Sequence record: PV200784.1
DNA: 52,243 nucleotides
Direction: 5' to 3' (one strand)
Origin: Staphylococcus phage ISU935
In this document: in pieces, positions 48,667-52,243 of the stretch
Layout: every line of letters starts with the position of its first letter
How positions within the stretch are numbered: position 1 is the stretch's first letter
The notes under the pieces: generated by a model
Databases searched by the model: none
Seen by the model: the letters and a program-made list of their open reading frames with translations, nothing else
What the model was told of the DNA's origin: nothing
Program-made: the position numbers and the translations under genes

Positions 48667-48733
48667 CTTTAAACCGCGTTGTTAAGCCATTCTTGACTTC
48701 TGGAAATGGCTATTGATACCATTTTGATACCAT

Positions 48734-49783
48734 TTACTTGTCAAAAATGGCTATTGCATCGTGTTTTTTCTGAGTATATAAATGGCTGTAAGTGCCCATC
48801 GTTTCAGTGATTTGAGCATGTCTCATGAGTGACTGTAAAACGAAAATATCTACACCATTATTTGCAAGATAAGATGCATAAGAATGTCTTAACGCGTGAA
48901 TGTTATAATGGGGGAAAGCTTTTTGGAATTTCTTTTGAACATGACTGTAATGTTTGGGAGCCATTCCTCCGAAAATAAAATAACTACGTTCATCAAAATA
49001 TTTGTTTAACTCTTTTTCACGTTGATGTCGTTCAGTTAACATTGTATTGATGAATTTAGGTAAAGGAACAATATCCTCTGAACTATCTGTTTTTGGTCTC
49101 GGATATATAGTTCTATTAGAGATGTCCATTGTTTTATTTATGGATATCTCTTTTTTGTATTTATTGTAGTCTGTCCAAACAAGAGCCATAGCTTCGCCAA
49201 TCCTTAAACCTGTATAAAACATTAATGTAAATAACTCTCTGTAATCTTGCTCTTCAATGTCTTTGATTCTTTCTTCAAATTCTTCACGCATCATAAACTT
49301 AGGTTTTGGCTTTACACGCGGAATAGGTTTAATTGATATTGTTGGATCTGTACGTAATCCAAAGTATTTTTTGGCATAATTAATTACAACTTTAAAACCT
49401 GACCAAATTGTACGAGCAGAATTTGTTGACGCTACATTCTCTATTAGATATTTACGAAACTCTTGGCATTGATTTTGCGTTATCTTATTCATTTTTATGT
49501 GCCCGAACTTAGCTTTAAAGTGTTTATGATATTCATTTTGTTTGCGTCGTTTTGTTTTAGGTCTCAAATCGCTATTTTCTAAGTAGTGATGAAAAACATA
49601 ATCAAATGTTTTTGAATCGCTATATCCTTCGTTTACATCATTCAAAAAAATAGCCTCTGCACTCTTAGCTTCACGCTTAGTTGAAAAACCGCGTTGCATC
49701 TTACGTTTGTTATTACCGTATACATCTTTATATCTAATGGAAAAATACCATTTACCTGTATTATCATCCTTATATACTGGCAT
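48734..49783 (-). CDS. int: Phage tyrosine integrase (prophage left end, adjacent to the sufB 3' end)
   Basis: C-terminal catalytic R..HALRHSYAS..Y (HxxR ... Y) motifs. Reads toward sufB, 68 bp from its stop. Confidence 0.9.
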   Translation of the reverse strand: MPVYKDDNTGKWYFSIRYKDVYGNNKRKMQRGFSTKREAKSAEAIFLNDVNEGYSDSKTFDYVFHHYLENSDLRPKTKRRKQNEYHKHFKAKFGHIKMNKITQNQCQEFRKYLIENVASTNSARTIWSGFKVVINYAKKYFGLRTDPTISIKPIPRVKPKPKFMMREEFEERIKDIEEQDYRELFTLMFYTGLRIGEAMALVWTDYNKYKKEISINKTMDISNRTIYPRPKTDSSEDIVPLPKFINTMLTERHQREKELNKYFDERSYFIFGGMAPKHYSHVQKKFQKAFPHYNIHALRHSYASYLANNGVDIFVLQSLMRHAQITETMGTYSHLYTQKKHDAIAIFDK

Positions 49784-49849
49784 TTTGCTTCTCCCTCCTC
49801 AAAATTGGCAAAAAATAATAAGGGTAGGCGAGCTACCCGAAATTTCGCA

Positions 49850-50092
49850 TTATAGATAGGTTAGTGACAAAATACATTTTTCGTCTAGGTTAACCGTACC
49901 TCTTAGATTATTAATATTTTCATTTAGATGTTTTTCAGAAACTTTAGCAACTTCATAATCGTTCATGTAAAGTGTTTGTTTTTTTATTGCATAATTAATT
50001 AATTCATAATCTTTGTATACTTCTTTCACTTTATCTATATCAACATTTTCAAGAACAAGTTTTTTTCTGTTATTATAATTAAAGTATTCCAT
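49850..50092 (-). CDS. Small hypothetical prophage protein (80 aa) between int and the glycosyltransferase
   Basis: ORF with RBS AGGAGG. Function unknown. Confidence 0.5.
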   Translation of the reverse strand: MEYFNYNNRKKLVLENVDIDKVKEVYKDYELINYAIKKQTLYMNDYEVAKVSEKHLNENINNLRGTVNLDEKCILSLTYL

Positions 50093-50102
50093 TGTTTTCC
50101 TC

Positions 50103-51086
50103 CTATAATAGCTTATCTGCGATCATCACAGCTAATAAATCGTTTTGTCTTATTGCTTCTAATTTTAAGTTGAATATTTGTGTGACGTATTTATCTGAGT
50201 TTCTAGGTACTTTATTAATTGTTTTAGAAAAGTTGTTTAACCATTCGATTTTATCTTCATATTTCATTTTACTATTTGCAAAATTCTTTTTTTGACCGTG
50301 TCTTAAAAGTCTAGTTGTATATTTCCCGGCAAGTTGGTGTCTTTTTTCTTGGTTTTTATAAATTGGACTTTTATAAATAGCTTTATAAATTTCGTTTATA
50401 GTAGCAAAATATTGATTTCCTGTACTTTTATTTACAGACAAATGATTGCTAGACTCGAAATCGTTGACTACAATATAGTATTCATAGTCGGTTTTTATCG
50501 AGTAATTTTTCGAATTCATCAAAAATTCTATAGTAAATAATTGGTCTTCAGCAGTTTTAGAGAATGTTTTGAATTTTATCTTGTTTTTATCTATAACACT
50601 TTTTTTAAACATTTTTAGTACTGATAAAGCATAAAAAATACTATTATCAATAATATCAGCTTTCGCTACATTTCCTTTCTCAAATATAGCTTTAGGAACA
50701 CTTCTTCCTTTACCTTCAACTCCATATTTTCCAATTATTAAATCGCTATTATTTTCTTTGCCGTAATTATATAAATCTTCTAGTGCTCTTTCGTGAAGTA
50801 AATCATCAGAATCTAAAAAGAATACATATTCAGCTTTACTCATTTTTAAGCCTGTATTTCTAGGTACGCTAGCATTTCCACTATTCTTTTTTAACTGTTT
50901 AAAACGGACTAATCCTTTATATTTTTTTATAACATTCAGAGTCTCGCCATTGTCATTTGAATGATCATCAATAATAATTAATTCGTAATCAGTACTCTTC
51001 ATTGTTTGATTTAATACAGAACTAATGGTTCTATGTAATTTTTCGCCGTTATTGAATGTTGGCATTATAACACTTACTTTTTTCAT
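50103..51086 (-). CDS. tarP: Prophage-encoded GT2 (GT-A fold) glycosyltransferase, 327 aa; likely the wall teichoic acid beta-GlcNAc transferase TarP
   Basis: VSVIMPTFNNGEKLHRTISSVLNQT...ELIIIDDHSND...FLDSDD (DxD) GT2 motifs. Single-domain, about 327 aa. Sits between int and the CI repressor, as described for tarP prophages. The start is set at the second ATG, after the RBS AAAGGAGAA. Confidence 0.7.
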   Translation of the reverse strand: MKKVSVIMPTFNNGEKLHRTISSVLNQTMKSTDYELIIIDDHSNDNGETLNVIKKYKGLVRFKQLKKNSGNASVPRNTGLKMSKAEYVFFLDSDDLLHERALEDLYNYGKENNSDLIIGKYGVEGKGRSVPKAIFEKGNVAKADIIDNSIFYALSVLKMFKKSVIDKNKIKFKTFSKTAEDQLFTIEFLMNSKNYSIKTDYEYYIVVNDFESSNHLSVNKSTGNQYFATINEIYKAIYKSPIYKNQEKRHQLAGKYTTRLLRHGQKKNFANSKMKYEDKIEWLNNFSKTINKVPRNSDKYVTQIFNLKLEAIRQNDLLAVMIADKLL

Positions 51087-51137
51087 TTTCATTTCTCCTT
51101 TGCTTACTTTATATATTAAAGCGCCACATAGGCGCTA

Positions 51138-51812
51138 TTAATCAAAAATTCGATAGTTATAAATAACTTTGCCTATAACTTCGATTTCATCAATAGAATC
51201 TAAATCGTAAGAATTAGTTTTAAATTCATCTGAATAGCTTACTGGGTCTAAATGTAGTTTTGTTTCAGTACGTCTCACACGCTTAACTGTATATTCACCA
51301 CCTAGACGTAATACAAGGATGTCATTGCTGTTAAGTTTATGATCACAAGACTTCCTATAATCATGGACAATTATATAAGAACCGTTAGCGAGTATTTTAT
51401 TCATGCTATCACCATTTATTTGTAACGCTATGCATTCACTAGGCTTACGACCATTAAAGGCTACGTCTGGAATATCGAAATCTTTTGTTTCAATTTCGAC
51501 TGTCTCAAAATTTCCAGCAGAAACTTTTCCATAAAATGGCACTTGATAGTAATGATTAATGTTTTCTAATGGAACAATATCATCTTCTAAACCAATTAAA
51601 TAATCCATGCTTACACCAAAGTAAGAAGCTAGTTGAGATACAGTTTTCGCTATGGGTTCTGATTTGTTATTTTCCCAATTGGACAATTTACCTTTAGTAA
51701 AACTGTTTTTCTTGTCCTTTGAAGGGAATTTTTCATGCAGTTCATCGCTAAGTTGTTGTAAAGTCAAACCTTTTTGCTTCCTTAAATTTCTTATTCTATC
51801 TCCAAAAGTCAT
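51138..51812 (-). CDS. Phage CI-like repressor (XRE HTH plus S24 LexA-like autopeptidase)
   Basis: N-terminal HTH (IRNLRKQKGLTLQQLSDEL), C-terminal Ser (GDSM) and Lys (VKRV) dyad. Confidence 0.88.
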   Translation of the reverse strand: MTFGDRIRNLRKQKGLTLQQLSDELHEKFPSKDKKNSFTKGKLSNWENNKSEPIAKTVSQLASYFGVSMDYLIGLEDDIVPLENINHYYQVPFYGKVSAGNFETVEIETKDFDIPDVAFNGRKPSECIALQINGDSMNKILANGSYIIVHDYRKSCDHKLNSNDILVLRLGGEYTVKRVRRTETKLHLDPVSYSDEFKTNSYDLDSIDEIEVIGKVIYNYRIFD

Positions 51813-51939
51813 TTCGTTCTAACTCCTTATTATTATTTATCCCCATGAATTTAATATACACCATGTGTTGTTTATTTACAACACTTATATAAGAAGAAAT
51901 AAAAAAAGTTATAAAAACACGACAAAAGTGTTGCAAAAG

Positions 51940-52000
51940 TAAAAAAGGTGGTGTAGTATAATAGACAAGTCGTAAATACACGACTTAGAAAAGAGGTGCG
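51940..52000. promoter_or_regulatory. Divergent cI/cro promoter-operator region. Palindrome AAGTCGTAAATACACGACTT (about 51968-51987), the related half-site CACGACAAAAGTG upstream, and a -10 TAGTATAAT for cro
   Basis: Inverted repeats lie between the divergent HTH genes. Confidence 0.55.
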
Positions 52001-52003
52001 AAA

Positions 52004-52243
52004 ATGAACGGATATAACAAGTTGAAAGGTTTGTTAACAGAAAGAGGCATCAAGAATAAAGATTTAGCCGAATTACTTGATATAAATAGAACAACTGTTA
52101 ATAAAAAACTAAATCGAACTAATGGGAACGACTTTTCAATGTCAGAAGTAAGAGCAATTTGTTTGTACTTAGATATCAGTGCAGACATATATTTTTTAAA
52201 CCAAAGTCGTGAAAACACGACTAAAGAAACACAAACAACTTAA
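52004..52243 (+). CDS. Cro/XRE-family HTH protein (prophage lytic-switch regulator)
   Basis: HTH NKDLAELLDINRTTVNKKL. Divergent from the cI-like gene. The stop codon is at the window end. Confidence 0.8.
   Translation: MNGYNKLKGLLTERGIKNKDLAELLDINRTTVNKKLNRTNGNDFSMSEVRAICLYLDISADIYFLNQSRENTTKETQTT

Follow-up and report, generated by a model that had tools for sequence, protein, structure and literature searches.

The evident left end of a tarP-carrying, Sa1int-type prophage at sufB of Staphylococcus aureus

Here, we describe the end of a prophage and its glycosyltransferase (GT) gene, tarP, in a 52,243-nucleotide (nt) stretch of DNA (Staphylococcus phage ISU935, PV200784.1; "the window" means this whole stretch), of which the prophage portion makes up 3.6 kb only. 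Positions 48641 to 52243 almost certainly represent the left (attL-int) end of a temperate siphovirus prophage of the Sa1int type, inserted at the 3' end of sufB in Staphylococcus aureus and carrying tarP, which encodes a wall teichoic acid (WTA) beta-1,3-N-acetylglucosaminyltransferase. TarP, its structure, its carriage by Sa1int phages at sufB, and the exact 3.6-kb sequence are all already known, published and deposited. The locus contains the following features (ORF, open reading frame; aa, amino acids; HTH, helix-turn-helix):

47269 to 48666, plus strand: sufB, Fe-S cluster assembly, the chromosomal target gene (Pfam SUFBD_core, E value 1.8e-88; SufB annotated in OQ578994)
48641 to 48730, no strand: attL, 90 bp, the left prophage boundary, made up of the final 26 nt of sufB, with the stop codon, and the 64 nt after it
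48734 to 49783, minus strand: tyrosine integrase, Sa1int, 349 aa (Pfam Phage_integrase, Arm-DNA-bind_4 and SAM-like domains; identity to phi55)
49822 to 49838, minus strand: terminator-like hairpin (consensus scan)
49850 to 50092, minus strand: orf80, an 80-aa ORF homologous to SA1809 of phiN315 (phrog_24423, E value 6.5e-53)
50103 to 51086, minus strand: tarP, WTA beta-1,3-N-acetylglucosaminyltransferase, 327 aa, allele D296N relative to phiN315 (PDB 6H1J; annotated as tarP in OQ578994)
51115 to 51142, minus strand: stem-loop between cI and tarP (RNA fold)
51138 to 51812, minus strand: CI-like repressor, 224 aa, with an N-terminal HTH and a C-terminal S24 autopeptidase (Pfam Peptidase_S24, E value 1.3e-17, and HTH_19, E value 4.5e-13; phrog_4, transcriptional repressor)
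51813 to 52003, no strand: divergent cI/cro control region with presumed operators and promoters (placed by its position between the divergent repressor genes)
52004 to 52243, plus strand: Cro-like HTH regulator, 79 aa (Pfam HTH_26, E value 1.1e-9; phrog_3 and related transcription-regulator families)

All five ORFs in the prophage part of the window are full length, with the stop codon of cro forming the last three bases of the window, and the cro-like gene is the first gene of the rightward early operon. An earlier note, made from the letters alone, had described an integrase, an 80-aa ORF, a 327-aa GT2 protein, a CI-like S24 repressor and a divergent Cro-like gene beside sufB, and the ORF map and Pfam recovered all of them at or near the positions that it gave; the integrase does adjoin the sufB stop codon, at a distance of 67 nt instead of the 68 bp claimed. 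The same note held that a sugar transferase is abnormal in a siphovirus lysogeny module, which we do not share: a conversion glycosyltransferase beside int and att occupies a classic moron position and is no anomaly.

The integrase was typed against phi55 YP_240491, which serves as the Sa1int reference (PMC11217367), and matched it at 346 of 349 aa (99%). Both this reference-allele match and the location at the 3' end of sufB, the integration site of Sa1int prophages (PMC11217367), place the element in the Sa1int type. A megablast search against phage records returned one full-length match, Staphylococcus phage phiST9-B (OQ578994), with 100% identity over positions 48667 to 52243; as far as its letters tell, the prophage left end is indistinguishable over 3.6 kb from this published phage. 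phiST9-B is a tarP-carrying prophage of the sequence type 9 (ST9) methicillin-resistant S. aureus (MRSA) strain N08CSA36, lies between sufB and a hypothetical gene, and was published in 2025 (PMC12282191). Its record begins with sufB, measures 44,483 bp from attL to attR, and carries replication, terminase, portal, capsid, tail, holin and lysin genes; the remainder of the present prophage, outside the window, would by this likeness be complete. The sufB flank of the window has two mismatches to the record (47328 and 48516), so the window probably derives from another isolate whose prophage has an identical left end. Between the lysin gene and attR of OQ578994 (L021 among our comparison loci, which are numbered with the prefix L) lies a 278-aa ORF of unknown function (44679 to 45515) without a match in Pfam, NCBIfam or PADLOC. 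Sa1int phages often carry exfoliative toxin A at this position, and the ORF is a possible second cargo gene outside the window.

A phage-inducible chromosomal island (of the S. aureus pathogenicity island [SaPI] kind) could present a similar picture, as an integrase and a pair of divergent repressor genes likewise open a SaPI, and no more than the start of the module is visible here. That the int-cI-cro module belongs to such an island and not to a full phage is nevertheless extremely improbable: the integrase is the Sa1int phage allele, the insertion point at sufB is that of Sa1int phages, the first part of a 44.5-kb phage genome matches the DNA at 100%, and identical loci continue downstream with genes for a phage antirepressor, a Sak-type recombinase and an SSB. 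The SaPI reading was rejected on these four grounds, and the element is treated as a phage below.

Integration at sufB could be followed through all four junction types (attL, attR, attP and empty attB), which were mutually consistent. In the window, attL is intact and runs from sufB through the 90-bp segment into CATTTACTTGTC; in the attP of phi55, a phage arm leads through the 90 bp into the same CATTTACTTGTC on the int side; in the attR of the phiST9-B record, a phage arm leads through the 90 bp into TGAATAAAAC; and in empty attB loci recovered via the exact SufB protein (L006, L007, L009 and L011 to L013), sufB is followed by the 90 bp and then by TGAATATAACAAAAAGCCACATTACTGTGGCTTTTTTT on the chromosomal terminator side. 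The repeat partner of attL is found at positions 45905 to 45994 of the phiST9-B record (attR), as a direct repeat matching at 84 of 90 positions (6 mismatches), and the segment overlaps the 48-bp attP annotated in phage B166. The earlier note had sought attL in the spacer at 48667 to 48733 and a matching attR at the far end of the prophage; attL is indeed there, with limits shifted to 48641 to 48730 because the homology begins inside sufB, and the matching attR is known from the far end of the phiST9-B record (100% identical over 48667 to 52243) and not from this genome.

The prophage would have integrated by a tyrosine-recombinase exchange inside the 90-bp segment that is common to the phage and to the 3' end of sufB with its adjacent downstream sequence, and SufB would stay intact after such an exchange. 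The same 465-aa SufB protein is encoded, without change, beside empty attB sites, and the insertion thus left the sufB coding sequence intact. Strains and phages vary in the sequence of the att segment, which precludes assigning the crossover to one point in it; for the same reason, a scan of genome contigs for an empty attB with an exact 41-mer gave no match. This att homology of 90 bp is unusually long, and its variation extends over empty sites, phage attP copies and lysogen junctions (the window, L003, L004 and L006 to L013); the empty site L013 equals the phiST9-B attR copy over all 90 bp. Past position 52243, about 41 kb more of phage DNA would be expected, followed by a second 90-bp copy, then by TGAATA(A/T)AACAAAAAGCCACATTACTGTGGC and an oppositely oriented 104-aa gene.

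The suggestion in the earlier note that the prophage glycosyltransferase is a putative TarP was borne out by the comparison that it had proposed. Against all PDB chains, the best match to the 327-aa GT2 protein was 6H1J ("probable ss-1,3-N-acetylglucosaminyltransferase," the TarP of phiN315), with an E value of 1.9e-211, 704 bits and identity at 326 of 327 aa, and TarS came next (PDB 5TZE/5TZ8; E value 8e-40, 140 bits). The ORF extends from the first ATG over 50103 to 51092 on the minus strand (329 aa); a second in-frame ATG at 51086, with AGGAG 8 nt upstream, yields a 327-aa product of the annotated length. Pfam placed Glycos_transf_2 at aa 7 to 168 and TarS_linker at aa 226 to 323, and the alignment to the 6H1J chain covers the full length. 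The protein thus has the TarP architecture of 327 aa, with a GT2/GT-A domain and a TarS-linker-like C-terminal region that includes a trimerization segment, and lacks the additional C-terminal domains that TarS has; it falls in phrog_22739 (E value 2.6e-228). Its gene also sits where tarP is expected, on a temperate phage and in the lysogeny module next to the integrase (int, orf80, tarP, cI).

A glycosyltransferase of another GT2 family (a TarS paralogue or an enzyme for capsule, exopolysaccharide [EPS], teichuronic acid or O-antigen) that resembles TarP only in size and position would share the generic GT2 domain, and both the weak NCBIfam similarities to TuaG, EpsD, PglI and others and the label of the PHROG family ("GtrB-like O-antigen conversion") could be read that way. 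In the NCBIfam scan, however, no capsule, EPS or O-antigen family came near its cutoff, all matches being far below threshold (best, TuaG, 86 bits against a cutoff of 400), so the better match to an unrelated family that the earlier note had named as a refutation was not found, and several phage records carry the tarP annotation. With identity at all but one residue to the crystallized TarP, against 140 bits to TarS, a TarS paralogue or other GT2 family is ruled out and this explanation is practically void; the gene is referred to as tarP throughout.

Compared with SA1808 of phiN315, tarP has 11 nt differences in 984 nt, 10 synonymous and 1 nonsynonymous (D296N), which indicates purifying selection on the gene. 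The published TarP map assigns nt 31 to 285 (aa 11 to 95) to the N-acetylglucosamine (GlcNAc) region, nt 385 to 789 (aa 129 to 263) to the poly-ribitol-phosphate (poly-RboP) region, and nt 916 to 978 (aa 306 to 326) to trimerization, and names T10 and F11 as critical (PMC9837562). Codon 296 (nt 886 to 888) falls in none of these regions, and the translation retains T10 and F11; by this placement, the D296N allele would be active.

How tarP would be transcribed was considered from its position and the neighboring structures. cI and tarP share a strand, with tarP 51 nt downstream, and the stem-loop between the two overlaps the cI stop codon (−12.9 kcal/mol, z score −2.26) and has a partly U-rich tail; its sequence is common to the tarP-less phage B166 down to about 51078, and it is possibly a leaky terminator or a processing/stability element. 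A second hairpin, GGGTAGC-TCG-CCTACCC with a T-rich tail (pattern scan), follows orf80 and precedes the int promoter region; it is not the minimum-energy fold of its 66-nt context, and it may, tentatively, end a cI-tarP-orf80 transcript. One promoter-like site was detected in the cI/cro region on the minus strand (51881 to 51853), where the frequency of such sites did not exceed that in shuffled sequences. The search for a separate tarP promoter found none that was convincing, promoter-like hits not being enriched over shuffles. Since no convincing separate promoter was seen for tarP, and the gene is preceded by a possibly leaky stem-loop and followed, after orf80, by a terminator-like hairpin, read-through from the cI transcript would be the most economical model of its expression, and in a lysogen tarP would be expressed, probably by cotranscription with cI or via read-through.

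TarP is a cytoplasmic, trimer-forming GT-A (GT2) enzyme with UDP-GlcNAc (uridine diphosphate-GlcNAc) as donor and adds beta-GlcNAc to C3 of the WTA ribitol-phosphate repeats, in competition with the housekeeping TarS (beta-1,4-GlcNAc); published work assigns C3 of ribitol phosphate to TarP and C4 to TarS (PMC9837562). In its published phenotype, TarP lowers recognition by anti-WTA antibodies; it impairs WTA immunogenicity (PMC9650247), and it keeps siphovirus sensitivity and confers podovirus resistance (PMC6532042). The WTA of this isolate is probably beta-1,3-GlcNAc modified, to judge from the gene it carries, and the isolate can be flagged as tarP-positive S. aureus, which is relevant to WTA-based vaccines and phage therapy. 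If the strain also carried tarM, its WTA would be a mixture of the alpha-1,4 and beta-1,3 kinds.

Several points weigh against this reading of the locus and its phenotype. The prophage share of the window is 3.6 kb, and the completeness of the prophage and its attR in this particular genome lie beyond view; the sufB flank has its two mismatches to phiST9-B, and the prophage could diverge further downstream; no promoter specific to tarP could be identified; D296N is, as far as the literature search reached, without a published experimental test; and growth conditions are reported to push glycosylation back toward TarS (PMC9837562). Several of these points would also suit a decayed prophage remnant, or a tarP that is silent or inactive in this strain and leaves WTA glycosylation unaltered: the view ends with the stop codon of cro, the promoter search gave none dedicated to tarP, TarP carries the single substitution D296N, no L54a-type excisionase gene lies beside int, unlike in L008 and L010, and there are sublineages of tarP-carrying Sa1int prophages that have lost RinA function (PMC11217367). 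We consider such a defect very unlikely, given five full-length ORFs, an intact attL, 100% identity to a 44.5-kb prophage having all modules, a widespread TarP allele, which argues against a defective variant, and the position of D296 outside the mapped functional regions (PMC9837562). In addition, a PhiSa1int-tarP prophage from the ST398 strain 75049, not shown to be the present one, is inducible and transferable and lysogenizes RN4220 (PMC9650247).

Immediately downstream of tarP, orf80 has a ribosome-binding site (AGGAG, a strong Shine-Dalgarno sequence) that shares bases with the tarP stop codon, an arrangement suggestive of translational coupling. Its family, phrog_24423 (E value 6.5e-53), is of unknown function; no match was found in Pfam, NCBIfam, PADLOC or PDB, and a single-sequence AlphaFold model (predicted local distance difference test score, 49.9) was too poor for a fold search. 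orf80 accompanies tarP in both Sa1int and Sa3int phages, and 5 of its 80 aa differ from the phiN315 copy, compared with 1 of 327 in TarP. The overlap with the tarP stop codon, the shared travel and the faster change would suit a functional TarP partner, or a separate lysogenic-conversion or superinfection factor; against this, one tarP context (L016) has lost most of orf80, and tarP on a plasmid suffices for WTA glycosylation (PMC9837562). We consider a functional role of either kind, instead of that of a passenger, unlikely.

Pairwise blastn showed that the tarP-less Sa1int phage B166 has positions 48682 to 49842 in common with the window (int and the region upstream of it), as well as 51078 to 51542 (the end of cI, the intergenic hairpin and the ribosome-binding site). 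These alignment limits define a variable slot at about 49843 to 51077, which here holds orf80 and tarP. In this slot between int and cI, tarP and orf80 form a two-gene cargo cassette; phiN315 (Sa3int) has a 1,354-bp cassette in common with the window (49792 to 51145, 98.5% identity). Two Sa1int prophages without tarP (L008 and L010) have a 59-aa ORF beside int (5628 to 5807) with a precomputed Pfam flag as an L54a-type excisionase, a flag that for L008 was not reproduced in Pfam or NCBIfam scans. No L54a-type excisionase gene adjoins int in the window (49784 to 49849, compared with L008 and L010), and the small ORFs that follow cro in phiST9-B yielded no recognizable excisionase family.

In the assembly collection, 1,708 blocks list a TarP with exactly this sequence (N296). 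The gene order of the window is identical in L015 (with 19 similar places), L017 and L020; L015 and L017 depart from the window by 1 to 2 nt over 3.7 kb (48500 to 52243), and L020 by 1 to 2 nt over 3.6 kb (48641 to 52243). On the chromosomal side, L015 and L017 show 16 to 17 single-nucleotide polymorphisms relative to the window in 2.4 kb; such divergence beside a phage part with 1 to 2 nt differences fits horizontal movement of the phage between backgrounds. Across the hosts of tarP-carrying Sa1int prophages among L014 to L018, the suf flank (46103 to 48499) differs from the window at 9 to 17 positions in 2.4 kb. In L014, L018 and L019, tarP is kept and the neighboring repressor is swapped, and in L016, the integrase is swapped too and most of orf80 is lost. 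In clonal complex 398 (CC398), 482 of 690 Sa1int prophages carry tarP, about 70% (PMC11217367), and tarP has also been reported on Sa2int, Sa5int, Sa7int and Sa12int phages (PMC9650247, PMC11217367). Sa9int, which the earlier note had named among the carriers, is a label on which papers differ: the tarP phage so labeled was later called misidentified and of Sebago type (PMC9650247), and 193 Sa9int-tarP prophages are still counted elsewhere (PMC11217367). The locus adds nothing new to general biology; it does bear out what was known, in that one and the same phage left end occurs in chromosomal backgrounds that clearly differ, which fits a horizontal spread of tarP phages.

Outside the prophage part, the window consists of ordinary core chromosome of S. 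aureus, in which housekeeping genes run up to the suf operon, along with ClfA, Vwb, thermonuclease, LnsA, a transfer-messenger RNA (tmRNA) and an S-adenosylmethionine (SAM) riboswitch. The host is a member of a common lineage, as its Vwb allele is found in 17,590 collection blocks. The Staphylococcus small RNA S35 (RF02894) is present in two copies on the plus strand (770 to 1097 and 36950 to 37216; 147 and 268 bits). The tmRNA gene (13565 to 13926) is followed by a stretch of 25 to 28% GC (about 14 to 17 kb), and three ORFs near ssrA (15473 to 16201 on the minus strand, 16799 to 17320, and 17459 to 17989) had no NCBIfam match; positions 13565 to 17989 could be a small variable region beside ssrA. 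The clfA gene (18252 to 21197, 981 aa) contains Ser-Asp repeats that lift the GC content to 0.456 at 20 to 21 kb and create long spurious ORFs in other frames (19784 to 21025, 19858 to 21033, and 20005 to 20997). Between the emp-like and nuclease genes, a 173-aa ORF (24630 to 25151, plus strand) matches the C terminus of the von Willebrand factor-binding protein model with its C-terminal 90 residues (E value 1.4e-37).

Among known systems, the Gtr serotype-conversion modules of enterobacterial temperate phages place a glycosyltransferase by int and att, express it in the lysogen, and alter a surface glycopolymer that is both antigen and phage receptor. The present locus likewise has a prophage-borne glycosyltransferase beside int and att, and the PHROG label of the TarP family is "GtrB-like O-antigen conversion." Gtr systems have three components and use a lipid-linked sugar on the outer side of the membrane, whereas TarP acts alone as a soluble enzyme in the cytoplasm, where it transfers GlcNAc from UDP-GlcNAc directly to WTA. 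The TarP of phiN315 (SA1808) matches at 326 of 327 aa, has the same 327-aa layout of GT-A and TarS-linker-like C-terminal region, and is followed by the same 80-aa ORF (SA1809); it differs in residue 296 (N here), in its carrier, an Sa3int phage in hlb and not an Sa1int phage at sufB, and in the gene upstream of tarP, SA1807 in phiN315 and cI here. The primary paper on TarP, describing the phiN315 enzyme, is reportedly that of Gerlach et al. (2018, Nature 563:705). phiST9-B has the same insertion beside sufB and the same order of int, orf80, tarP, cI and cro, with tarP annotated in its record. TarS has a homologous GT-A catalytic domain and linker domain (Pfam TarS_linker) and the same donor and acceptor polymers, but it is chromosomal, has 572 aa with extra C-terminal domains, and modifies C4 instead of C3 (PMC9837562), scoring 140 bits against 704 for TarP. 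The PhiSa1int-tarP prophages of livestock-associated MRSA (LA-MRSA) CC398 (PMC9650247, PMC11217367, PMC7588543) have the same integrase type, the same site at the 3' end of sufB and the same tarP cargo; in this comparison, the host background of L015 and L017 differs from that of the window.

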